Part shown: piece by piece, positions 3 through 46,089 of the stretch
Layout of the letters: each line of letters begins with the position of its first letter
Position numbering within the stretch: position 1 is the stretch's first letter
Source: Candidatus Methylomirabilales bacterium
GTDB taxonomy: Bacteria > Methylomirabilota > Methylomirabilia > Methylomirabilales > CSP1-5
Direction: 5' to 3'
Length of the DNA: 58,964 bases
Assembly: GCA_046758505.1 (NCBI GenBank)
Contig: JBHIAH010000010.1
Coordinates: 1-58,964 of the forward strand
Translations under genes and position numbers: made by a program
Notes under the pieces: model-generated
Database searches by the model: none
Seen by the model: only the letters and a program-made list of their open reading frames with translations
What the model was told of the DNA's origin: nothing

Positions 3-85
3 GTAGGGGAGCCTCTCCCCTACAACCCCTCAGTGCCCCTGGCGGAAGCTCGCGGCGTTTAGGAAGAATGAGTTGGAGGGGCACT
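3..85. repeat. REP/MITE-like palindromic element at the window edge
   Basis: GTAGGGGGAGCCTCTCCCCTAC hairpin (3-23) and inverted pair AGTGCCCCT (32-40) / AGGGGCACT (77-85). Confidence 0.4.
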
Positions 86-197
86 CATGCATCCCCCAGT
101 ACTCATACGGACGCTGCTGCACCCATGCCGTCATTGGGAGGGCCACCCCGAACAGACTGAGGACAGAGGCCACCCCCTTCAAGCGTAATAGCTTCAT
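30..197 (-). pseudogene. Truncated secreted/membrane protein (signal peptide + QQRPYEYWGMH), running into a palindromic element
   Basis: ATG at 197 with a GAGGAG RBS; 55 codons MKLLRLKGVASVLSLFGVALPMTAWVQQRPYEYWGMH, after which the sequence becomes inverted-repeat DNA (3-85). Confidence 0.35.
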
Positions 198-603
198 TGT
201 TGTTGACTCCTCTCATAGCTGGGGAGGTCGTGTCCTTCGCCTCTCGACCCAGAACCAGTTAAACGGCCGCGATCGCGCAATCCTGACCTGGGGACGATGG
301 TCCCTGGGATCCTGGGTTTTCAGCGCAATGTCTGTGCCAGCCGTGTTCGCCTGGGAGGAATCCAGCCTAACCTATTGATTTTCCTAAGATCCATGCGTTT
401 ATAGGTCTCACGTTGAGGCGACGAGACCCCGGTCCGCAGGACGCCCCATCCCCAAAGGGAGGAGGATATTAGTTGTAACTAGCCGAAATCTAACTTCGTT
501 GCCGTGAGGCATCAATGCCTCAGTGGGGCACACTGTTCCCTATTGCTTTGTCGCAGAGCGGAAAACGAATGTCCCCGAGTCTCAAAAGCCGCATCGATCT
601 GTC

Positions 604-6402: not shown

Positions 6403-6498
6403 CGCTGCCTCCCATCGGGCACTGCGGGTCCGTCGGCGCGGTTGAGGAACACCTCGTGGTTCAAAGACCGGGGATCCGCTCCAGCACGGACCGTCGCC

Positions 6499-6801
6499 TC
6501 AGCCGACCACTGAAGCTCGGTAGACGTGGCGGCCATCGCTGCCAGCCGCCGCGACCGCTTCCATCAGGCCTTGGGGCTCGATCTGCTCCGGATCGTAATG
6601 CACCAGGGCCAGGGCACTAAACAGATCGATCTGCACCTGCATGACCCCCTGGTGGGAGAGGAGGCTGTTTCGCACGCGCGTGACGCACGTCTGGCAGCCC
6701 ATCCCGGTCACCCCGAGGACTGCCGTCTCCGCCCGGGCAAGCGCCTCTGGATCAACGGTCTTCTGTACAGGATCAACGTGGCAATTCCCTTCGTGTTGCA
6801 T
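6499..6801 (-). CDS. HMA-domain metal chaperone (CopZ-like), copy 1
   Basis: GMGCQTC motif; N-terminal NCHV; AAGGAGG RBS before ATG 6801. Confidence 0.88.
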   Translation of the reverse strand: MQHEGNCHVDPVQKTVDPEALARAETAVLGVTGMGCQTCVTRVRNSLLSHQGVMQVQIDLFSALALVHYDPEQIEPQGLMEAVAAAGSDGRHVYRASVVG

Positions 6802-10860: not shown

Positions 10861-10956
10861 CGCTGCCTCCCATCGGGCACTGCGGGTCCGTCGGCGCGGT
10901 TGAGGAACACCTCGTGGTTCAAAGACCGGGGATCCGCTCCAGCACGGACCGTCGCC

Positions 10957-11259
10957 TCAGCCGACCACTGAAGCTCGGTAGACGTGGCGGCCATCGCTGC
11001 CAGCCGCCGCGACCGCTTCCATCAGGCCTTGGGGCTCGATCTGCTCCGGATCGTAATGCACCAGGGCCAGGGCACTAAACAGATCGATCTGCACCTGCAT
11101 GACCCCCTGGTGGGAGAGGAGGCTGTTTCGCACGCGCGTGACGCACGTCTGGCAGCCCATCCCGGTCACCCCGAGGACTGCCGTCTCCGCCCGGGCAAGC
11201 GCCTCTGGATCAACGGTCTTCTGTACAGGATCAACGTGGCAATTCCCTTCGTGTTGCAT
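10957..11259 (-). CDS. HMA-domain metal chaperone, copy 2
   Basis: GMGCQTC; identical to 6499-6801. Confidence 0.88.
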   Translation of the reverse strand: MQHEGNCHVDPVQKTVDPEALARAETAVLGVTGMGCQTCVTRVRNSLLSHQGVMQVQIDLFSALALVHYDPEQIEPQGLMEAVAAAGSDGRHVYRASVVG

Positions 11260-35959: not shown

Positions 35960-36955
35960 TTAATTATATATTAATGTCTGCGTGGCCGCGTATTGGTATT
36001 TTATCTTGATCTGCAACAGTCCGAAGATTCCGGCGACCGTCAACCCGGAAAAGATGGCGGCCAGCAGGACGATGCCACTGAGCAGCAGCGCGACGCGCCA
36101 TCCCACCATGGTGCGATAATACCAGATGCGTTGCGGTGCGGCCGCAGCGGTAAACCAAAAGGCCACCAGCCCGGCCAGGGCCATTCCGCCCCTCCAGAGA
36201 TACGTCCCGATCAGGAGGTTTGCAATGGGGGGAGCAAAGGAGAGGAGGCCGATCCCGACACCCATCAGGGCATTCAGGAACTGCCCCTGCCACCCACCTC
36301 CGGTGAGCGTGACGGGAAAGATCCAGGAGGGCTTGATCGCCACCGCCGCCAAAAAGCCTGCGGCGACAAAGCCGTAAAGCAGCCGCCACCCGCTCGCCGC
36401 CACTTCTCGCCCGATGAGCCGAAGAGCCAGTTCTCCCCATCGAAGAGGCAATGATCCCCTGGTTTGACTCGGCGGGATGGCTAGGTCGGTCAGATCCGCC
36501 TCTGGCGAGGGGATTGCGGAGACCTCGCTTCGCCTAAGCTGACTTCCCAAGGGGATAAATAGGCCGAGGAAGACGATTACCCCTATCGCGTAGGCGAGCA
36601 GGAATTCCTTTCCAAGCAAGGGCGGGAGCAGGAAAACATAGAACAACAAATAGTGGGCGCCCCCGATAAATGCCAGGAGATCCCGCCACCGGTCAGCGGC
36701 GAGGAAGGTCCGGGCAATGCGGGTGAAGGCGGCGTGGGAGGTGCACCCCGCCCCAACCACAAGGGGGGTCAGAATGCCTCGGAGCCCACCCGATGAGCCG
36801 CCTTGGAGAGCCCGGAGCCTGGCCGGACGAAAAGCGAGGCTGTGGACCGCCACTGCTCCGAGGAAGACCCAAATAAGGATTCCCCGGGCAAAGACCACCA
36901 CCAGGTAGTAAAAGGTCACCCAGGCCCACTTCAGACTTTCCCCCAAAAGGGCCAC
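35960..36955 (-). CDS. Predicted permease (DUF318/ArsP-like)
   Basis: Multi-TM protein, GAGC motif, paralog architecture with 38778-39806. Confidence 0.65.
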   Translation of the reverse strand: MALLGESLKWAWVTFYYLVVVFARGILIWVFLGAVAVHSLAFRPARLRALQGGSSGGLRGILTPLVVGAGCTSHAAFTRIARTFLAADRWRDLLAFIGGAHYLLFYVFLLPPLLGKEFLLAYAIGVIVFLGLFIPLGSQLRRSEVSAIPSPEADLTDLAIPPSQTRGSLPLRWGELALRLIGREVAASGWRLLYGFVAAGFLAAVAIKPSWIFPVTLTGGGWQGQFLNALMGVGIGLLSFAPPIANLLIGTYLWRGGMALAGLVAFWFTAAAAPQRIWYYRTMVGWRVALLLSGIVLLAAIFSGLTVAGIFGLLQIKIKYQYAATQTLIYN

Positions 36956-37018
36956 TGCTTTTTCTCCGATGGCTAGTTACACTCCAACCCGTTCCACCAA
37001 ATTCCAGCGGGGAGTCTC

Positions 37019-37552
37019 CTACGGTTGCCCCATCCTATGCCGACTTACCAGAAGGCTCGCGAGCTCGCCTGCCGCCAGGTCTCGGTACTGGACCTCTCCC
37101 ACCAGGGTGACCTTGGCATCTGTTGCCGCCGCGTCCTTCTTTAATTCCGCCAGGGCAGATCCAGATCGGAGGAGGAAGGGCTGCTCGGTCCCTGCAACCA
37201 CAAAGCGCAGCTGTCCCTCTCCGGTGATGCTCGCGGTCCCCACGGCCTTGATCTCTAAGGCATCGAGGGTGATTCCGCTGTCCCTCACCTTGCGCTCGAT
37301 CAGCTGGGGATCGAGGGTGAAGGTCGAGCGCGGGATGATCTGGATCCAGCCTCGGTTCAGATCGACTTTTACGTTGGCTACGCCATCCAGGCGCAGTAGG
37401 GTCTGTTGGACCCCGTACGCTCAGAAATTTCAGGTCATGCCATGGACGCGCAGCGTGACCTCCTGGATCTCCGCCCTGACCGGGGAAGTGAGCAGGCCGA
37501 ATCCCAGCAACAGCGCCCCCAGGCTTCTTTGAAAGATCCTTTTGCCCCTCAT
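37019..37552 (-). CDS. Secreted HMA-domain protein, predicted double selenoprotein (GMT-U-NF-U-AYG)
   Basis: ATG 37552 with GGAGGGAG RBS, signal peptide; TGA at 37432-37430 and 37423-37421 in the CxxC positions; frame continues to 177 aa. Confidence 0.85.
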
Positions 37553-37578
37553 ATTCTCCCTCCTTTGCTGCCTTTCAT

Positions 37579-38466
37579 TTAAAAGAACTGGTAGCTCACG
37601 CTGAAGATAACGCGTAAGTCGAACTCCGCCTGCTCGCCGTTGAGGTCTTGGGCCACAGGGATCTGTCCCGCCAGGGAGAGGTTCAACTGGGGGATTGGCC
37701 GGTAGAAGAGAAAAGGGTCGGCAAAGAGGACAGTGCCTCCCGAGTTTCGTTGCCCCACCCCGTTCAGCTCACTACGCCCGGCGAATTCTGCGGTCAGCCC
37801 GAGACCGATTCCCAGCTCCGGCCCGGGAAAGGGGGCCTGGTAAATCCGGTGGCTAAAGCTCACGTCGAGGACCAAGAGATCCCCGGCTTCGAAATCCTGT
37901 GCCCCCTCGGTGTTGAGCTTGTAAAAGAGGCTGCCGTTCAGGGCCGAGCGGCCCAGGATGGTGGTGTTGGCCAAACCGAAGATCCCATTCACTGCTCCCA
38001 GGCCGGGCTGGAGCGCCGGCGGCAAACGTTTTCCTCCATCTTTCTGATCCGTGGCCCCGGTAGGGAGTTCCACCCCCCCAAAGACCGAGAACTGCACGCT
38101 GGTCCGAAAGGCATCGTGCTTGAAGAAACGGTATTTCCCCAGGAGGATCAGGTCCCCCGGTCCGAAGGCTTCCTCGACCCGCCCTGAGCGCTCCCGGCGC
38201 TTGTAGACTACCGGGATGGTCCCTCCGATCACCAGATCGTGGAGGGGGGAGTAACTAAAGGAGGTGACGTTTCTCAACCCATCCGTCTCTTGGCCCGCTC
38301 CGCTCCGGCTGGAGAAGATGGTGGCGTTGCTCACGATCTTGCCCACCTCAAAGATGGTCACGCCGGTTCGGGCATCGACTCCCTGGGCCCAACCGTTGAC
38401 GGGTACGGAGAGGGTTGCTCCCGCAGTAGCGACCAAGAGCGCCCAAACCGCTTCTCGCCTTGCCAT
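37579..38466 (-). CDS. Outer-membrane beta-barrel 'transporter' (SphA/MetA-pathway-like)
   Basis: Signal peptide, GPGDLIL-x-GKY, ELPTG, LQPGLG, terminal SYQFF. Confidence 0.8.
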   Translation of the reverse strand: MARREAVWALLVATAGATLSVPVNGWAQGVDARTGVTIFEVGKIVSNATIFSSRSGAGQETDGLRNVTSFSYSPLHDLVIGGTIPVVYKRRERSGRVEEAFGPGDLILLGKYRFFKHDAFRTSVQFSVFGGVELPTGATDQKDGGKRLPPALQPGLGAVNGIFGLANTTILGRSALNGSLFYKLNTEGAQDFEAGDLLVLDVSFSHRIYQAPFPGPELGIGLGLTAEFAGRSELNGVGQRNSGGTVLFADPFLFYRPIPQLNLSLAGQIPVAQDLNGEQAEFDLRVIFSVSYQFF

Positions 38467-38499
38467 CCCTCCCTCCAAGGCCTCTGGATTCCCAGGTCC

Positions 38500-38637
38500 T
38501 TATTTCTCCGGTGCCTTAGCCTGTTCACCTGACTGAGACAGGACTTCAACGCCCTGCTCCTCTTTGTCTTGAGGGGGCCGCTCTTCCCGAATCCCCACCG
38601 GCATGAGAGGGAGACCACATCCGCAAAATTCGCACAT
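38500..38637 (-). CDS. 45-aa peptide with N-terminal MCEFCGC metal-binding motif
   Basis: GGAGGTG RBS, first ORF after a MerR-type promoter. Confidence 0.7.
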   Translation of the reverse strand: MCEFCGCGLPLMPVGIREERPPQDKEEQGVEVLSQSGEQAKAPEK

Positions 38638-38665
38638 CCGAATCCACCTCCTTTCTATATAAAAA

Positions 38666-38697
38666 AGTTTAAGCCTTCCCCTTAGGGGTAAGGTCAA
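38666..38697 (-). promoter_or_regulatory. MerR-type promoter/operator
   Basis: TTGACC, 20 bp, TAAACT with dyad CCTTACCCC-TAA-GGGGAAGG. Confidence 0.8.
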
Positions 38698-38777
38698 GAC
38701 ATATTTGCGAGGAAAGTTGAGAGGAAATTGGTGTTGATAGATCTTCGTTTCTCCTGTGCTTGCCCCGTTCCAGAAAT

Positions 38778-39806
38778 TTAGAAGCCCAAGGCGGGCAAGA
38801 TTTTGCTGATCAGCTTAAGCGGGGGGAGGTCGGGGCGAAAACCGAACAGCGCGTAGATCCAGGTGGAGCCGAGGCCGCCGAGGATAGCGGCAGCGTACAG
38901 GAGGCCGACCAGGATCAGCCCCTGCTTCCCCCCAAAGGTCCTGAAATAGATTCGCACGTCCCGGGGGTGGATCGCGCTGGCCAGGCAGAAACTGATGATC
39001 CCGGGATAGGCAAGGCCATCGGTCTTGAACAGAGCATGGATCACCGGGAGGTTTCCCACGGGGGAGAGGAACATGATCGCAGAGAAGGCAGGACTGGCCA
39101 GGGCATTGAGCAGGTCAGAGGCAGGAGTTTTACGGCCCATGATGTCCGCGAAGATGATCCACCAGGACTCTAGCCCGGCCGCAAAGATGAGCCCTCCCAG
39201 GATGATCCCTACGACAAGCGTCGGTGTGAATCGCCGTACCTCGTGCCCGATGAATTTCAGCATAGCCCACCATCCCTCAAGGGAGAGGAGGAGGGCGCGC
39301 CAGCAAGGGAAGCTGGCCAGATCGAGGACGAATGTATTGCTCTCCGCCTTTCCCATGGCCGGGGTGGCAAGCACTGGTGGTCGAAGCCAGTTGAGACCCA
39401 GGGCAACAACGCCGATCATCACCAGTGCCCCGAGCACCTGCCCCGTGGCAAATTCTGCGCCCAGCGACAGGGCAAAGATCGCCCAGAAGTGGATCGTCAT
39501 GTTCCGGCTGGCAATCAGGTAGGCGAAGGCCGTGGCCGGGGAGCGGCCACGCTTGAGCAGCTCCCATGCGGCCTGCCGGCTGATCTCGCGGTCCGCACTC
39601 CCCACGATGCCCGCCTTCATAGCCCGCCAGATGCTTGGCCCTGCCGTTGATGGACTTTCGAGAAGTCTGTCCCATGTGGAGCGGCGGTACCGCAGGGTCA
39701 GGAGGGCGGCTACGAGAAAGCCCGGAACCCACACCGTGTAGAAGAGGGTCATGAACTTAAACAACTCGATCGTGAAAAACCAGGCCTGTTGCCAAAAAAG
39801 CGCCAT
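38778..39806 (-). CDS. Predicted permease (DUF318/ArsP-like)
   Basis: Multi-TM protein; AFAYLIASRN, SPVGNLP, GIISF motifs. Confidence 0.7.
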   Translation of the reverse strand: MALFWQQAWFFTIELFKFMTLFYTVWVPGFLVAALLTLRYRRSTWDRLLESPSTAGPSIWRAMKAGIVGSADREISRQAAWELLKRGRSPATAFAYLIASRNMTIHFWAIFALSLGAEFATGQVLGALVMIGVVALGLNWLRPPVLATPAMGKAESNTFVLDLASFPCWRALLLSLEGWWAMLKFIGHEVRRFTPTLVVGIILGGLIFAAGLESWWIIFADIMGRKTPASDLLNALASPAFSAIMFLSPVGNLPVIHALFKTDGLAYPGIISFCLASAIHPRDVRIYFRTFGGKQGLILVGLLYAAAILGGLGSTWIYALFGFRPDLPPLKLISKILPALGF

Positions 39807-39915
39807 TGTCCTTCCTTTTGGAGGCCCTAGCCGACTTGACTTCTGATTGCCTCTCGCAATTGAAGCCGGTCAGATCACCGCGTACCTTCTGGGCCCATCG
39901 CCTGTCCCGACACCC

Positions 39916-40770
39916 CTAGGGTCCCCAGGAGGGGCCCCCTTCGTAGCTTGGGCTTCGGGTTAGGTTTACAAAGGCCTTCGTCTTCAGGTCGACGGCGTAG
40001 ATGTCGCCGCCCCGCTCGAAGGCGAGCCATCTGCCGTCGGGGGAGAAGGAGGGTTGGATGTCGAAGGTGTCGGTCTCGGTCAGCCTGTTCAGGTTCGTGC
40101 CGTCCAGGTCCATAAGGTAGACCTCGAACTTCCCCCGCCGGTCCGAGACGAAGGCGATCCTCCGGCCATCGGGCGAGATGGCCGGATCCATATCGGTGGC
40201 GGGATCGGCCGTCAAGCGCCGTTCCTCGCCGGTCTTCAGGTCGAGAAGATAGATCTCCACCTGGCCGTCCCGATCCGAGATGAACGCGGCCCGGAACCCG
40301 TCCGGGCTGAATGCGGGTCAGGCGTTGTTCCCCGGCCCCCTGGTCAAACGCCGCAGGTTCGAGCCATCCGCGTCAATGACGAAGAGATCGGATTTCTCGT
40401 TCCGGAGGCCGTCGAAGACGATCCGGGTCCCATCACCGGAGAACCACGGACAGCCCTCGTAGGTTTCTGTTTTGGTCAGGTTGACCTCGTTCGAGCCGTC
40501 CGGATTCATGGCCCAGATATCACCGTCGCGTTGAAAGGCGATCCGGTCCCCCCGGGGGGAGAAGGAGGGGTTTCCATCTCTGGAGAGGCCGGGGGTGAGG
40601 GGCCGTTTGGTCCCCTCCTCGGCGGCGATGACGGCGATTCTGTATCGGACTCCACTTCCTTCGTGGAAAGTGATCCTCCCTTCCCGCCTGCCGCCTGCCT
40701 CGGCACATCCGAGGGCGAGCAGCCCGGCGACGATCATGGCCGTCAGCAAGACGATCCCTCGCCGACCCAT
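39916..40770 (-). CDS. TolB-like (PD40) beta-propeller lipoprotein, predicted selenoprotein (U151)
   Basis: Lipobox ALGC; ORFs 40318-40770 and 39916-40260 are one frame joined through TGA 40320-40318 (NNA-U-PAFSPDG); hairpin 40289-40307. Confidence 0.8.
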
Positions 40771-40796
40771 GGCAACCCTCCTTTCTCCTTAATTCC

Positions 40797-41306
40797 TTAA
40801 CGGATCTGAAACTGCTCGATCCGGGCCGCCTCCTCCCCTTCCGGGATCTGCCCTACAATAAAGATGGACTCGCCCTCCTGGCCGGCGGCCTTCTTCAGCG
40901 CCTCCAGCTTCTCATCACTGACAAGGGGGATGACCTGGTCCGTCCCCTTCACCTTGAAGGCCGGGCTCCCGTCTCGGGTGGTAAGCTGTCCCACCGCCTC
41001 GAACCGGATCCAGGTCGGGGTAAACCCCGAATCAACGACGGCCTTCCGGAGCTCCTCGACCTTCAGAGGCTGTCCCTCCTTGAGTTGGATGTCCGCCCGT
41101 GCTTTCTTGAGACTTGCCTTCACTTTGTCCACGCCATCCAGGCGTGAGAGGCCCTTTTGGGCCCCATACGCTCAGATGGGTCATATCATCCCGTCGATAC
41201 CCATCTGGACCGAGGAGATCTGTGCCTGGGCCAGTGGGGGATCGGCCAGCGTGGCGAAGAGGCTCATTGCAACGAGCAGGCTGAGAAATACGGCGAGCTT
41301 TCGCAT
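40797..41306 (-). CDS. Secreted HMA-domain protein, predicted double selenoprotein (GMI-U-PI-U-AYG)
   Basis: ATG 41306 with AGGAG RBS, signal peptide; TGA at 41183-41181 and 41174-41172; paralog of 37019-37552. Confidence 0.85.
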
Positions 41307-41321
41307 GGTGTCTCCTTTCTC

Positions 41322-42206
41322 CTAAAAGAGGTATCGGAATCCAAACAGCACGGTATAGTCGGGTTCCAGTCGGCCGCTCGGGAAGTCGTTGACGATCGGG
41401 ATCTGGACCCCTGTCTCGAAGAGCAGGTTCCCGGTGACGATGTACTGGATTCCGGGGGAAATAAAGAGCACGGTCCCGCCGGTGTTGATGTCTTTTCCGT
41501 CGATCGCGTTGTCGCCGGAGGTCCGGCCGTTGAACTCGATGCCCAGATTGAGCTGGGCGGGGGGCGTCGGCCATTCGGGGTACGTCTGATAGGCCAGGTA
41601 GAGGTCGTACAGCAAGACGTTCCCGAACTGAAAGTCCTTCGCCTCGGAGTTGATCTTGCCCCGAAGCGCCGCCTCGATGCTGTACCAGCTTCGGGTGGTA
41701 CCGGCAGCGATCCCCACGATGCCGTCCACGCCGCCCGAGCCGAGCTGGAGTGCGGGGGCTGCCGTGAGCCCGGGTCCCTTACTGGTGGAGCCCGAAGGGA
41801 GTTCGAGGCCGCCGATGACGGCCAGTTGGTCGCGGCCGAAGGGGAGATCTCGCCGATAGAAGGTGTACTTGCCGAAGAGAGTGATATCCCCGATGCCGCT
41901 GGCGTCGAAGGTCCCTGTGGGGGTTTCCAAGTGCTTGTTGACATATGGGACAGTCAGATTCAGCGTCGCGTTGGTCGCCAGGGCGTAGGAAAAGATGGCC
42001 GGGGCCGTCCAGACCTTGAGTTCCTTGCCTCCGCCTTCGAGCCTCTGGAATTGCCCGAAGGACCGCACCGCCGTCCCCAGAAAGAACTGAGTCCGGGGGC
42101 TTGCGCCGAAGATGGGGGCTGCCAGCACGCGGGCCGGCAGAAGGCCAACCCCGATAATCAATAGACCCATTTTCCAGCCCGTTCGGATCGCTCTCCGCTG
42201 CTGCAT
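41322..42206 (-). CDS. Outer-membrane beta-barrel 'transporter' (SphA/MetA-pathway-like)
   Basis: GIGDITLFGKY, ELPSG, LQLGSG, terminal FRYLF; paralog of 37579-38466. Confidence 0.8.
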   Translation of the reverse strand: MQQRRAIRTGWKMGLLIIGVGLLPARVLAAPIFGASPRTQFFLGTAVRSFGQFQRLEGGGKELKVWTAPAIFSYALATNATLNLTVPYVNKHLETPTGTFDASGIGDITLFGKYTFYRRDLPFGRDQLAVIGGLELPSGSTSKGPGLTAAPALQLGSGGVDGIVGIAAGTTRSWYSIEAALRGKINSEAKDFQFGNVLLYDLYLAYQTYPEWPTPPAQLNLGIEFNGRTSGDNAIDGKDINTGGTVLFISPGIQYIVTGNLLFETGVQIPIVNDFPSGRLEPDYTVLFGFRYLF

Positions 42207-42263
42207 AGATTCCCTCCGTAAGCTCATCACGGACGTGGTGGATAGCATTTAGAACATTCCCTC

Positions 42264-42462: not shown

Positions 42463-44868
42463 CTATTGCTCTCCACAGACGTGGCCGATCTCTCCAAGGG
42501 ACTTGCAGATCTCGGCCCGCTCCATCTGGCCATCCCGAAGGGTGACGGTGATGCGTTTATCCTTGACGTCCCCGTCTACCGCCTGGATGTCTGGCAGCTT
42601 CTCGAGCTTTTGGCGGATGCCGGTGAGGCACCCCTCGCAGTGTATCGTGGGAACCTTGAGTGTGAGCTTCTCCATGGTCACCTCCTCTTTGGTCTCGCGC
42701 CGTGGCAGCAGGCGGCCGCCGAAGGAGTTCAGGAGGACGGTCGTGACACTCGCCGCCATGGCAACCATGGCCATGACCGGGTGGACGAGACCCGTGACGG
42801 CCGCCGGGACGCCGATGCCGTTGAAGGCAAAGGCGAGGGAGACGTTCTGCACCGTCTTGCGGAAACTGCTCTTGCCGATGTAGTAGGCATCCACCACTCC
42901 CCCCAGCCGGTCCCCCACCAGGATGACGTCGGCGGACTCGATCGCAATGTCGGTTCCGGCCCCGACCGCGATCCCGACGTCGGCCTGCATGAGCGCGGGG
43001 GCGTCATTGATGCCATCTCCGACCATGGCCACACGGTAGCCTTGCTGCTGAAGCTTTCGCACCTGTTCGGCCTTCTGGCCAGGGAGGACTTCCGCAATGA
43101 CATCCGTGATGCCGACCTGGCCGGCCACGGCCTTTGCGGTTCGCCGGTTATCGCCGGTGAGCATCGCCGGTTCCAGGCCGGCGCCCTTCATCCGGGCCAC
43201 GGCGTGGGCGGCGTCGTCCTTGAGGGTGTCAGCGATGGCGATCAACCCCGCGAGCTGGCCCGTCTCGGCCGCGGCCACGACGGTTCGCCCCTGTTGTTCC
43301 ATCACCTCTACGCGCTCCTGGACCTGGGTGAGGTCTATGCCTTCGTCCGAGAGGAAGCGAGGGCTTCCGACCAGCACGGCTCTGTTATCAATCGTGGCCC
43401 TGATCCCCCGCCCCGGGATAGCCTGGAAGTCCAGGGCATCAAGAGGCACACGCCCATCCGCTGCCTCCGCGATGGCCCTGGCTAGGGGGTGCTCCGAGGG
43501 GCTCTCGGCGGCCGCGGCAAGCGCCAGCACCTCCTCCTCCATGTAATGGCCCGTCGGCACCACCTCGATCACCTGGGGCTTGCCCCTGGTGATGGTCCCC
43601 GTCTTATCCAGCACGACCTTCCTCACATCTTTGAAGACCTGGAAGGCCTCGCCCGAGCGCATCAGGATGCCCTGCTGGGCAGCCATGCCGCCGCCCCGGA
43701 TCATGGCGAGTGGGGTAGCCATCCCGAGGGCGCAGGGGTAGCCCATCACCAGCACCGCCAAGGTGGCAAAGATGGCCCGGGTGAAGTTCGGTTCTCCGAT
43801 GAGTAGCCAGGCGCCCAGAGTCCAGATCACGAATGCTGTCCCCGCTGCGACGAGTACCCCGGGGACAAACCACAGCAGCACGCGTTCCACCAGCTGCATG
43901 ATGCCCGGCTTGAGCGCCCGGGCTTCCTGGATGGAGCGGGCCACCTGCTCGAGGAAGCTTTCCTCTCCCACCTTGGTGACGCGCACGAGCAAGCTGCCCG
44001 TCTGGTTCATGGAGCCGCCGATGACCTCATCTCCGACGGCCTTCTCGACGGGAATGGACTCGCCCGTCACCAGGCTCTGATCCACCCCCGACAGTCCCTC
44101 CACCACCACGCCGTCCACCGGAAAGCTCTCGCCGGGGCGAATCCGCACGAGGTCCCCCGGTCGCACCTCCTCCGCGGGGAGTTCCTCTTCTCTCCCGTCC
44201 CGGACGACGCGGGCCGTCGGAGGCTGGAGGTCCATCAGTTTCTTGATGGCCTGCGAGCTCTTCGTGCGGACCAGCAGAGAGACGTATGCCGAGAGAATGT
44301 GATACGCGGTAATGAAGACAGCGGCCCCCATGAAGTCGGCCATGGGCCAGGGCTGCGTGAAGAACCCGACTGCGCCGCCGGCCAGGCCACCGAAGGCGCC
44401 GAACTCCATCAGCACGTGCTGGTTCAGGATCCCCCGTTTGAGCGAGGCCCACGCCATCTTGAGGATGGGCCAGCCTACGCCGAAGACCATCCCGAGCGCG
44501 AGGCCCAGCATCACCCACTTGAACAAGGGCTGCTGGACGCCCAGCCACATCGCGCTCATGAAGCCGAGGGAGACGAGCATGAAGCCGGCCGCCACCAGGA
44601 GCTGGTTCCGATGCCGACGCAGATCGGCCTCTTCCTCTTCAAAGGTCCGGACCTTCTTGGGGTCGCGCACCGTGTATCCCAGGCTTCGCAGGGTATCCCA
44701 GAGCTCTGTGGGGGTTACCTGCTCCGGGTCGTAGTGGACCAGCGCTTCCTCATGGGAGAGGCTCACGCCGACCTCCCCCACGCCGTCCATTTGCGTCAAG
44801 GCCTTGCGGATGCTCTCTACGCAGAAGGAGCACTGCATCCCGCCGATCTTTATTTGCAGCTTCTCCAT
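42463..44868 (-). CDS. Heavy-metal P1B-type ATPase with YPC motif and N- and C-terminal HMA domains
   Basis: GMQCSFC, TGES, GYPCALGMATP, DKTGT, SEHPL, GDGIND, C-terminal IHCEGC. Confidence 0.93.
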   Translation of the reverse strand: MEKLQIKIGGMQCSFCVESIRKALTQMDGVGEVGVSLSHEEALVHYDPEQVTPTELWDTLRSLGYTVRDPKKVRTFEEEEADLRRHRNQLLVAAGFMLVSLGFMSAMWLGVQQPLFKWVMLGLALGMVFGVGWPILKMAWASLKRGILNQHVLMEFGAFGGLAGGAVGFFTQPWPMADFMGAAVFITAYHILSAYVSLLVRTKSSQAIKKLMDLQPPTARVVRDGREEELPAEEVRPGDLVRIRPGESFPVDGVVVEGLSGVDQSLVTGESIPVEKAVGDEVIGGSMNQTGSLLVRVTKVGEESFLEQVARSIQEARALKPGIMQLVERVLLWFVPGVLVAAGTAFVIWTLGAWLLIGEPNFTRAIFATLAVLVMGYPCALGMATPLAMIRGGGMAAQQGILMRSGEAFQVFKDVRKVVLDKTGTITRGKPQVIEVVPTGHYMEEEVLALAAAAESPSEHPLARAIAEAADGRVPLDALDFQAIPGRGIRATIDNRAVLVGSPRFLSDEGIDLTQVQERVEVMEQQGRTVVAAAETGQLAGLIAIADTLKDDAAHAVARMKGAGLEPAMLTGDNRRTAKAVAGQVGITDVIAEVLPGQKAEQVRKLQQQGYRVAMVGDGINDAPALMQADVGIAVGAGTDIAIESADVILVGDRLGGVVDAYYIGKSSFRKTVQNVSLAFAFNGIGVPAAVTGLVHPVMAMVAMAASVTTVLLNSFGGRLLPRRETKEEVTMEKLTLKVPTIHCEGCLTGIRQKLEKLPDIQAVDGDVKDKRITVTLRDGQMERAEICKSLGEIGHVCGEQ

Positions 44869-45024: not shown

Positions 45025-45056
45025 AGGCTAAACCTTCCAGTTGAGGAGGGACTCAA
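45025..45056 (-). promoter_or_regulatory. MerR-type promoter, distal copy overlapping the merR stop codon
   Basis: TTGAGT, 20 bp containing GGAAGGT, TAGCCT; near duplicate of 44892-44923. Confidence 0.6.
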
Positions 45057-45511
45057 GAACTTTTTTGGCGGTAGCGGGAGGGGAGAGAAAGGGGCTGGAT
45101 TTCTGCGCGTTCGATGTGGGGGCAGACCGAGCCGGCGCGGCCCCGCGTCCGGGGTCGGCTGGCCGATTTTCGTGCCAAACCGCTCAGCTCGTCGCGGAGG
45201 AGCGTGAGGTCTCTAATCTGGCGGGAGAGGGTGTGCACCCGTTCGGTGAGCAGGGCGTGCACGTGGGGACAGGGCAGATCCCCGCGTTGGCGCAGGGCGA
45301 TGATCTCACGGATCTCGGTCAGGGTGAAGCCGAGAGTCTTCGCCTTCTGGATAAATCGGAGGAGTTCAAGGGTCTGCGGAGTATAGAGACGGTATCGACT
45401 CTCGCTGCGCAGAGGCGGCGGCAGTAACCCCAGGCTCTCGTAATAGCGGATCGTCCGCGGATTGAGCCCGAGTTGCTTCGCAACCTTGCCGATAAATAAT
45501 GGTTGCCTCAT
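45053..45511 (-). CDS. MerR-family heavy-metal-responsive regulator
   Basis: IGKVAK...TIRYYESLGLL...YRLY...GFTLTEI; PCPHV and VCPHIE. Confidence 0.93.
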   Translation of the reverse strand: MRQPLFIGKVAKQLGLNPRTIRYYESLGLLPPPLRSESRYRLYTPQTLELLRFIQKAKTLGFTLTEIREIIALRQRGDLPCPHVHALLTERVHTLSRQIRDLTLLRDELSGLARKSASRPRTRGRAGSVCPHIERAEIQPLSLPSRYRQKSS

Positions 45512-45711: not shown

Positions 45712-46089
45712 TTACTCTGGCCTCACACAACGTCCTTCATGGTCAAGCATGCCCTCATGAGGTATGGTACCTTCTAAACGTTTAATGTAAAAATCAGGGT
45801 TCTTCTGGAACACTTCTGCGCAATATGGACAACCGCAAAAGTGCACTTCCTGCCCGGCAATCAACCTGACGGCCCGCTCGAGTGGCTTTTCACCCAAGCA
45901 GCTTGGGCATACAATCAGATCATCTATTTTCTTGAGGTATTTCTCAGGATCGGTGGTGAACAGGTCAACGCACCCCTGGCAACAGAAATGGTATTCTTCA
46001 CTGTTATAGCGGTAAGTAGCCGCCTTATCTTTGCTGACGCCTAGCCTGACCAGGGAACAACCACATGTCGGGCAAATGAGTGTTTTCAT
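45712..46089 (-). CDS. Tandem YHS/TRASH Cys-rich metal-binding protein
   Basis: CPTCGC...HFCCQGC...DPEKY and CPSC...HFCGCPYC...NPDFY; GGAGG RBS. Confidence 0.85.
   Translation of the reverse strand: MKTLICPTCGCSLVRLGVSKDKAATYRYNSEEYHFCCQGCVDLFTTDPEKYLKKIDDLIVCPSCLGEKPLERAVRLIAGQEVHFCGCPYCAEVFQKNPDFYIKRLEGTIPHEGMLDHEGRCVRPE

Follow-up and report, generated by a model that had tools for sequence, protein, structure and literature searches.

Two in-frame UGA codons followed by two tandem hairpins in the gene of a predicted exported HMA-OB selenoprotein of Methylomirabilales

Metal-binding HMA domains in which selenocysteine (Sec, U) takes the place of both metal-site cysteines, the UxxU type, are a known predicted kind of selenoprotein, represented by the NCBIfam model NF041115 and treated in PMC13188914 and PMC9312934. 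The phylum Methylomirabilota is reported to be very rich in selenoproteins (PMC13188914). For the UXXU-type hydrogenases, the question has been raised whether a single downstream selenocysteine insertion sequence (SECIS) decodes both UGAs (PMC13582414). The same question is posed by a gene at positions 40797..41306, on the minus strand of a 58,964-nucleotide stretch of DNA from a Candidatus Methylomirabilales bacterium (the window; contig JBHIAH010000010.1 of GenBank assembly GCA_046758505.1). Taken as a whole, the analysis indicates that this gene probably encodes an exported protein with an HMA domain and an OB-fold domain, acting as a Sec-x-x-Sec metal carrier with both UGAs read as Sec, in a module together with an outer-membrane barrel and a permease.

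For this two-domain UxxU architecture no paper or curated model was found, only the small NF041115 type, as far as the accessible sections of the literature reach; the supplements of the reviews and reference 66 of PMC13188914, on a metagenome-assembled genome (MAG) of Methylomirabilota with 63 selenoproteins, may list it. New with respect to the described systems are the HMA-OB architecture with a site that is nearly always of the Sec type, the fixed barrel and ArsP-type permease partners, and the presence of two hairpins behind the UGA pair.

The gene, its paralog and the conservation of the TGA codons

The gene and its elements, together with those of a paralog in the same window, are as follows.

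40797..41306, minus strand: gene of the predicted exported HMA-OB selenoprotein (paralog 2), 169 aa; stop codon TAA at 40799-40797; Shine-Dalgarno-like AGGAGAAAGGAGA upstream
41223..41306, minus strand: predicted signal peptide of the Sec (secretory) type, codons 1-28, with MRK, a hydrophobic core and AQA before Q, read by eye
41181..41183, minus strand: first in-frame TGA, codon 42 (predicted Sec)
41172..41174, minus strand: second in-frame TGA, codon 45 (predicted Sec)
41148..41165, minus strand: hairpin H1, GGGGCCC-AAAA-GGGCCUC, 7 bp, starting 6 nt past the second TGA
41129..41147, minus strand: hairpin H2, SECIS-like with a G-containing loop, UCACGCC-UGGAU-GGCGUGG, its loop 31 nt from the second TGA
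41007..41219, minus strand: HMA (ferredoxin-like) metal-binding domain, codons 30-100, from Pfam, the model and structure matches
40800..41006, minus strand: C-terminal OB-fold domain, codons 101-169, from the domain modelled alone
37019..37552, minus strand: paralog 1, 177 aa, with TGAs at 37432-37430 and 37423-37421, H1 at 37414-37398 and H2 at 37396-37378

Read with TGA as U, 41306..40797 yields 169 residues (MRKLAVF...GIDGMIUPIUAYG...QFQIR) with U42 and U45. The first-pass annotation of this stretch had proposed a read-through protein of this length with TGA at codons 42 and 45 without giving a strand; the protein is present, on the minus strand, while the plus-strand reading of the same interval is meaningless and holds no gene. 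The paralog, 37552..37019, has U41 and U44 in the motif GMTUNFUAYG. That annotation had also spoken of a diverged paralog in which both TGAs are kept, and pairwise alignment agrees: over 136 residues the identity is 35% (E 1e-20), and both genes have TGA at the same two sites.

The source genome (assembly of 2.99 Mb in 149 contigs, 96.8% complete) contains the machinery for the use of Sec. Genome searches found selB (333.2 bits), selA (607.5 bits) and selD (406.8 bits), each above its curated cut-off, and a tRNA-Sec of 80 bits, above the Rfam cut-off. The selD gene carries one in-frame TGA and is itself a selenoprotein gene, with the motif GAGUACKISP (L021, at G000:C6:7795-8721). Among the stops of 602 long open frames, TGA occurs 329 times, TAG 157 times and TAA 116 times. 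TGA is therefore the commonest ordinary stop codon and has not been reassigned in this genome.

When 251 genomes of the phylum were searched with read-through of TGA, the two-domain protein turned up 17 times, in 12 genomes. TGA stands at both sites in 12 of the 17 copies and at the second site alone in the remaining five; there is no copy without a TGA. The motifs of the 12 double-TGA copies are GMIUPIU, GMTUPIU, GMVUATU, GMVUPTU and GMTUNFU. Four of the single-TGA copies have GGMQCSLUTYG and one has GMICVTU; the latter copy and its strong H1 are all that is supplied by an unpublished genome (G043), and no conclusion rests on either. A scan of public contigs from metagenomes and named MAGs, with a closer alignment of 8 rows as query, added 14 loci, comprising 12 UxxU loci and two Cys forms (CPHC and CSHC). 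The MAG titles among them are Candidatus Binatia, Candidatus Methylomirabilota (two) and Nitrospinota, and the most distant of these further UxxU loci have a protein identity of about 40%. Of 65 protein-database matches, 64 are C-terminal fragments of 92-112 aa that start just past the TGAs, and the single full-length match (P0052) has CPHC. Cysteine thus occupies the TGA sites in three homologs: P0052 and L056 (both CPHC) and L057 (CSHC). Furthermore, in-frame protein conservation spans both TGAs and takes in the stretch from the signal peptide to the TGAs. Among the public sequencing runs that match the gene no RNA run is listed, and the four strong DNA runs are all from one study.

The machinery, the TGAs at the same codons across genomes, the Cys homologs, the conservation of the flanking protein and the conserved RNA structure described below strongly support the view, already put forward in the first-pass annotation, that both TGAs are selected Sec codons. 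From these observations we infer that Sec is inserted at both positions.

RNA structure and the decoding of two UGAs

The 59 nt from the first TGA fold with -31.8 kcal/mol (z -4.63), a value that none of 200 shuffles matched, and the equivalent region of the paralog with -21.2 kcal/mol (z -2.00), which 8 of 200 shuffles matched. A hairpin placed as in the paralog, GCGT..GGGGCCC-AAAA-GGGCCTC..ACGC, had been noted before and is located at 41171-41142. Its apical stem, which corresponds to H1, is indeed kept in the relatives, with 93.8% of the alignment cells paired across 24 rows. The GCGT/ACGC lower stem is not: 69.8% of its cells are paired, with 0 double-sided changes. When the 48 nt past the second TGA are folded, the structure of minimum free energy (MFE) shows H1 and H2 in tandem for all but one of 25 distinct Sec-type sequences, the exception being L027, for which H1 is not drawn. 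H1 is absent from the MFE fold of both Cys forms. A conserved TGA and hairpin in related genomes, looked for as a check on the first-pass annotation, have therefore been found, the second-site TGA being present in 17 of the 17 phylum copies.

The RNA alignment holds 24 distinct Sec-type rows, 20 of them UxxU and four CxxU. The H1 consensus is GGGGYC, a 5-nt loop and GRCCCU, with 6 bp in most relatives; the copy under study has a one-base register slip and retains 7 pairs. The H1 loops vary (CAAAA, CAACA, CGAAA, CAGAA, ACCAA, CAGCG). H2 has the consensus (U)CACGCC-UGGAN-GGCGUG(G), in which the UGGAN loop is invariant in 24 of 24 sequences. An A-rich loop serving as a lineage-specific variant of the SECIS, as had been suggested at first, finds no support in that form and is unneeded, because the H1 loop and the lower stem are unconserved and a loop of the canonical type, the invariant UGGAN of H2, lies directly behind, 19 nt further on.

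The two-hairpin model pairs 91.0% of the cells, against 41.0-53.8% when the partners are slid. Five of its pairs are changed on both sides, four in H2 (of its 7) and one in H1 (of 6). The covariation score is 0.197, compared with 0.068 ± 0.014 for shuffled alignments, and 0 of 500 shuffles reach it, a control on related rows that is not to be read as a probability. Compensation in H2 can be seen in L029, where CGC...GGC is replaced by CAC...GGT, and in the CxxU clade, where CACGCC...GGCGTG is replaced by GACGGC...GTCGTC. Folded alone, H2 has a free energy between -8.1 and -11.4 kcal/mol in every one of the 24 sequences.

Synonymous constraint was measured in 12 distinct close orthologs as the fraction of pairs sharing an amino acid at a codon that use different codons for it. 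This fraction is 0.031 (12/383) over codons 54-60, which form H2, and the minimum of a sliding window falls on codons 53-60. It amounts to 0.245 over codons 46-53 (H1), 0.357 over codons 29-41 before the first TGA and 0.374 over codons 61-169, the rest of the gene. Two codons are the same in all 24 sequences, GGG for the Gly of the AYG motif and CTG for the Leu encoded in the H2 loop; in 13 neighbouring genes they account for 32% of the Gly and 36% of the Leu codons. H1 is under a weaker but real constraint at the RNA level.

According to the model of Zhang and Gladyshev as given in PMC13188914, the apical loop of a bacterial SECIS measures 3-9 nt and its upper stem 4-16 bp, its MFE is -7.5 kcal/mol or lower, one of the first two loop positions is a G, and the loop lies 16-37 nt from the UGA. 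With its 5-nt loop, 6-7 bp, folding energy, loop G and distance of 31 nt, H2 agrees with this model throughout for the second UGA, and it is very probably a canonical-type SECIS for at least this codon. The selD hairpin of the same genome (9 bp, GUG loop) starts 24 nt past its TGA, which is the same spacer as that from the second TGA to H2. Both spacings occur in the source genome, since the hairpin of a PD40 gene discussed below starts 10 nt past its TGA. Formate dehydrogenase was considered as a further SECIS comparator and rejected, all 25 Fdh-alpha-like matches in the genome being free of in-frame stops.

The mechanism that we propose is that both UGAs would be read as Sec by the organism's SelB and tRNA-Sec, and that this recoding would be directed by structure within 50 nt past the second UGA. 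H1, which lies between the UGAs and H2, would either aid H2 at the first UGA or act as its own, G-less SECIS. The former role, in which H1 helps H2 to serve the first UGA too, is conceivable at somewhat less than even confidence. The latter, with H1 as a second, non-canonical SECIS for the first UGA, is put forward more tentatively.

Among the alternatives, the one that survives best assigns H1 to the first UGA and H2 to the second, each signal at a workable distance; it is possible, though we consider it doubtful. Under the 16-37 nt rule (PMC13188914) each UGA has exactly one hairpin in range: the loop of H1 (4-6 nt, on a stem of 5-7 bp) has a distance of 21-22 nt to the first UGA and of 12-13 nt, out of range, to the second. 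The stability of H1 alone (no weaker than -7.6 kcal/mol among the 20 UxxU rows, but only -6.8 among the four CxxU rows, which have no first TGA), its absence from both Cys forms and the register slip that still leaves it paired are in line with such a division of labour. It has to be set against this that the H1 loop is variable, that only one of its six pairs is double-changed and that its synonymous constraint is moderate. Moreover, the four CxxU rows belong to one clade and therefore count as one event, and the CVTU copy of G043 keeps a strong H1 without having a first TGA. In related loci, finally, the genes of small UxxU HMA selenoproteins manage with a single conserved hairpin, GCCC-UGGAA-GGGC, which has an H2-like loop and is in range of both UGAs.

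It could also be imagined that one long hairpin of the E. coli kind, made up of the GCGT/ACGC stem and H1 with its A-rich loop, is the SECIS for both UGAs. The MFE fold of the 59 nt from the first TGA has this form, the paralog folds similarly and the apical stem is kept in all relatives. Even when the lower helix is extended, however, only 80.8% of its cells are paired, one of 13 pairs is double-changed and the covariation score is 0.083, against 0.197 for two hairpins. The loop is unconserved, and the long hairpin excludes H2, the carrier of the strongest constraint in the gene. In view of the ribosome footprint, moreover, a ribosome decoding either UGA would have unwound the lower helix on its 5' side beforehand. 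We regard this explanation as improbable.

Still less probable is the decoding of one or both UGAs as Cys, by a tRNA of the tRNA-ReC/SelC* type, or as another residue, which would leave no diselenolate site. It is suggested by the enrichment of tRNA-ReC-like tRNAs in genomes with UXXU hydrogenases, where either UGA may be Cys (PMC13582414). In the source genome ARAGORN lists 39 tRNAs, with only one tRNA-SeC (anticodon tca) and one ordinary tRNA-Cys (gca, 76 nt), although tRNAs can be missing from an assembly of 149 contigs, and the second-best Rfam match to tRNA-Sec, at 38.2 bits, is below the threshold of 47 bits. The tRNA-SeC is drawn with a G preceding the CCA end, which we take to be a discriminator of the Ser/Sec type and not the U of Cys identity. 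That the gene is a pseudogene or that its TGAs are true stops, with a 41-aa peptide and/or a C-terminal open reading frame of 108-111 aa as products, as would fit the public annotation with its calls of only the C-terminal fragment, can hardly hold, because the TGAs (at both codons in 12 phylum copies and 12 further loci), the protein on either side of them and the Cys homologs aligned at both sites are conserved across copies, and the fragment alone would be without the signal peptide and half of the HMA fold.

A number of observations weigh against the proposed decoding of both UGAs, and hence against part of the overall interpretation. The H2 loop is 40 nt from the first UGA, outside the permitted distance, and H1 is without a G in its first two loop positions in 17 of 24 rows, so that the decoding of the first UGA is unexplained by the standard model. 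The 24 RNA rows are related, and several of the double changes are common to one clade of four rows. Both hairpins lie within coding sequence; the AYG motif that feeds H1 is also kept in distant relatives of the Cys type (CPFCAYG), and the conservation of H1 is therefore partly protein-driven. If the folded stretch includes the TGAs, the MFE structure is the long hairpin, which uses the 5' arm of H2, so that the RNA may alternate between the two folds. Rfam gives no match at either hairpin, and its 8 weak matches at E<=10 in 36500-42000 include no SECIS family.

Domain architecture, genomic neighbourhood and putative function

Both proteins pass the gathering threshold of the Pfam HMA family PF00403 (24.8 bits), with 33.2 bits and, for the paralog, 35.6. 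An AlphaFold2 (AF2) model built from a 53-row alignment has a mean predicted local distance difference test (pLDDT) score of 86.5, with residues 1-26 below 50. It shows the HMA fold beta-alpha-beta-beta-alpha-beta (strands 30-38, 59-65, 70-75 and from 96; helices 43-54 and 83-92), and U42 and U45 are situated in the loop and at the start of the first helix. With the HMA part, Foldseek gives 15 matches at E<=0.001; a copper-binding protein of B. anthracis, HMA7, ATP7B, MerP (1osd, E 2.7e-4) and CopZ are among those listed. In VIA-align the matches are 4a48_A (Z 8.6, root-mean-square deviation 1.4 over 66 residues), GolB (Z 6.6) and MerP 1afi (Z 6.0).

Since searches with the whole model were filled by HMA matches, residues 100-169 were modelled alone. 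This model has a pLDDT of 90.9 and the order beta-beta-beta-alpha-beta-beta (strands 2-12, 15-20, 26-29, 49-54 and 62-69; helix 33-41), which fits an OB fold, that is, a five-stranded barrel with a helix between strands 3 and 4. Foldseek found no match for it in the PDB at E<=0.001. The leading matches named are all OB folds, at Z 6.8-5.0, and comprise the NlpE C-domain (Z 6.8), YgiW (6.3), SilF with Cu(I) (6.3), CcmE (6.1), SSB and PriB (about 6) and the SilB C-domain (5.2). A profile search of 1.84 billion representatives showed that exported HMA-OB proteins of about 175 aa form a wider family. Of its 15 representatives that were read, 11 have CxxC (mostly CPFCAYG), two WxxW and two no site. 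In the two WxxW records, P0243 (GMEWHLWALG) and P0314 (GMTWGLWAYG), Trp stands at both metal-site positions. This is probably TGA called as Trp by a gene caller, and more UxxU copies may be hidden as WxxW records. No NCBIfam model reaches its cut-off on the 170-180-aa HMA-OB forms; only a 251-aa form with two HMA domains (P0237) passes CopZ_AFE_1862 and TIGR00003, on its HMA domains. The four CxxU relatives (L030, L031, L033 and L046) end in Met-rich tails such as GMKGMGQ, PGMEGMPGMKGMGQ and SGMKGM. Such tails are typical of periplasmic Cu(I) proteins. The UxxU clade is without the Met-rich tails that are seen in the single-Sec clade.

The genes from 44868 down to 28141 are all on the minus strand, and those around the two selenoprotein genes are listed here.

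41322..42248, minus strand: barrel partner gene, 308 aa, predicted outer-membrane beta-barrel ending ...FGFRYLF, 15 nt from the selenoprotein gene
38778..39806, minus strand: permease partner gene, ArsP_1 family, predicted inner-membrane, 73.7 bits against a cut-off of 32.3
39916..40770, minus strand: PD40/TolB-like lipoprotein gene, in-frame TGA at 40320-40318, hairpin at 40307-40289
37579..38478, minus strand: barrel paralog of the other module, 299 aa
35960..36955, minus strand: permease-like paralog of that module, ArsP_1 21.6 bits, below the cut-off
42463..44868, minus strand: heavy-metal P1B-type ATPase with an HMA domain at each end, upstream and in the same orientation
45053..45511, minus strand: MerR-family regulator of the metal-sensor type, best match CueR at 97.3 bits, below the cut-off
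45712-46089, minus strand: YHS-domain protein, 125 aa, Cys-rich with many CxxC/CxC, between the MerR gene and dnaA, without an in-frame TGA

Their order is P1B ATPase, 308-aa protein, selenoprotein, PD40/TolB-like protein and ArsP_1 permease, followed by a second module of 299-aa protein, selenoprotein paralog 1 and permease-like protein. Then come a MerR-family regulator, two small open reading frames and a CusA/CzcA-type RND pump with adaptor and outer-membrane factor. A further MerR-family gene and the YHS-domain gene precede this series upstream. Both the 308-aa and the 299-aa protein start with a signal-like sequence, and their C-termini are ...YLF and ...YQFF. In a language-model atlas the 308-aa protein goes with outer-membrane 'transporter' clusters of the PF13557 type (Phenol_MetA_deg; 0.98, 25 of 30 matches). 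HMMER finds no Pfam match for it even at E<=5, so that the assignment as an outer-membrane barrel is a lead only.

Of 22 Sec-type loci, 20 have a homolog of the barrel gene next to the selenoprotein gene and 17 have one of the permease gene (in this comparison, L060 and L061 repeat L023 and L024). The order within the module is either barrel, carrier, permease or permease, carrier, barrel; MerR-family genes or an ATPase often adjoin, a MerR gene doing so in three related loci. The PD40 gene stands between selenoprotein and permease solely in the source genome among the compared loci.

On the basis of this arrangement, it is possible to propose a role. The protein would be exported to the periplasm by its predicted signal peptide; its HMA domain would hold Sec-x-x-Sec at the position of CxxC, and an OB fold would follow at the C-terminus. 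The mature protein would capture a soft metal ion on its two selenolates and pass it between the outer-membrane barrel and the adjoining ArsP-type permease, the module being part of a MerR-controlled metal-resistance island. From general Sec chemistry, two selenolates would bind soft metals such as Cu(I), Ag(I), Hg(II) or Cd(II) far tighter, and at lower pH, than two thiolates. The idea of a periplasmic soft-metal carrier follows from the synteny, the result for MerA, the Met-rich tails of the CxxU relatives and the ATPase matches. The metal may be Cu(I) or Ag(I), a tentative assignment, or with less likelihood Hg(II), other metals accounting for the remaining chance; we infer that copper or silver is somewhat likelier than mercury. 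No MerA above the cut-off is present in the 96.8%-complete genome, the best match reaching 398.6 bits against 454.45, and this disfavours the import-and-reduce logic of mer. The P1B ATPase has GYPCALGMATP, and its HMA motifs are CSFC at 13 and CEGC at 744; copper and zinc P1B pumps usually have CPC. It passes the Cu subfamily model (471.7 bits against 397) and the Cd model.

This functional assignment, too, meets with some contrary evidence. The matches of the MerR regulator, the ATPase and the RND pump do not separate Cu from Zn, Cd or Hg, and the two Cys-form loci are without barrel or permease within the 2.6-3.5 kb examined. The OB matches of the modelled C-terminal domain, being generic with Z below 7, show a fold and no particular relative.

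Other genes in and around the module may use Sec as well. The PD40/TolB-like protein has the lipobox LALGC and a TGA at codon 151 in the context NNAUPAFSPDG. The TGA column is an invariant Cys in nine of nine closest homologs (42-57% identical), as is C107, one blade earlier. The hairpin behind it has 7 bp and a CGGGU loop, and the gene is a candidate for an undescribed Sec variant of a beta-propeller protein. The Rfam match that is best by bit score in the region, Guanidine-II at 40260-40309 (E 0.53), was rejected as merely the hairpin behind the PD40 TGA. As to the YHS-domain protein, reviews list a Sec form of YHS proteins. Small HMA selenoproteins are encoded in related loci (L040:~40-270 (+), L025:~60-370 (+), L061 (-), L023 (-), L034 and L036), with the motifs GMTUFAUP, GMTUGAUP, GMTCKGUE, GMVCQAUP and GMVCSGUT. 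Their genes have one hairpin, GCCC-UGGAA-GGGC or GCCUU-GGA-GAGGC, about 17-19 nt past the second site, and these proteins probably belong to the NF041115-type family, in part as its CxxU variants. Elsewhere in the window, 6406-6750 and 10864-11208 (both minus strand) encode ordinary CxxC HMA proteins (GMGCQTC) with identical scores; as weak matches they were discarded as Sec candidates, the TGA that had been counted being their stop codon. These two identical-scoring copies are about 4.4 kb apart, so that a segment of the window seems to be duplicated.

Comparison with known systems and significance

Because gene callers cut the protein to a meaningless 111-aa fragment in nearly all records, a whole metal-handling module of Methylomirabilota, Binatia and Nitrospinota is mis-annotated. 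If the proposed role is true, the module would constitute a trans-envelope route for soft metals that has been undescribed so far and in which the Sec form is the rule. As selenolates would bind soft metals tighter, it may depend on this selenoprotein how much metal these uncultured bacteria can tolerate or scavenge. For the decoding by SelB of two UGAs three codons apart, a question raised in 2026 (PMC13582414), the gene provides a compact, conserved test case in which H1 and H2 are distinct and hence separately mutable. The most far-reaching combination, a natural case in which UGAs nine bases apart use two separately conserved hairpins (a G-less H1 and a canonical H2), together with a diselenolate carrier that links a barrel to an ArsP-type permease, is on balance unlikely to hold in all its parts.

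The closest described system is the family of NF041115, 'UxxU_metal_bind'. It shares with the present proteins an HMA domain in which both metal-site cysteines are replaced by Sec and a SECIS-like hairpin with a loop of the UGGAN type. It differs in being a stand-alone domain of about 74 aa with one hairpin. The two window proteins match it over profile positions 1-48 and 1-42 of 74, with 40.3 and 36.7 bits, below the cut-off of 95, and they are below the cut-off of the CopZ model as well. Features that this family lacks are their signal peptide, their OB-fold domain, the constant presence of barrel and permease genes beside them and the second hairpin. The wider HMA-OB family with CPFCAYG has the same architecture and the xxC-AYG motif in common with them, and differs in that its members are mostly Cys forms.

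MerP (TIGR02052), the periplasmic Hg(II)-binding protein, is alike in being an exported HMA protein with a dithiol-type site, accompanied by membrane transport genes and a MerR-type regulator. In contrast, the window protein has Sec for Cys, an extra OB domain and an ArsP_1 permease as partner where mer has MerT. The scores with TIGR02052 are 34.5 and 36.5 bits, below the cut-off of 92.55, and a Pfam scan of the locus, MerT not having been searched genome-wide, revealed no neighbour of the MerT family. With CusF and SilF, the periplasmic OB-fold chaperones of Cu(I) and Ag(I), the likeness consists in a small OB-type barrel, a metal-resistance locus and a CusA/CzcA-type RND pump. The C-terminal domain matches SilF with Z 6.3 and 6.0, which is no better than unrelated OB folds. 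No Met/His/Trp metal site was identified in the OB domain, and the metal site is situated in the fused HMA domain instead.

The UXXU-type Group 4 [NiFeSe] hydrogenases, finally, resemble the present gene in having two UGAs three codons apart at a metal-binding CxxC, likewise in Methylomirabilota (PMC13582414). They are different proteins with a Ni site, for which a single SECIS has been proposed (PMC13582414), whereas the gene described here has a second hairpin between its UGAs and the canonical one.

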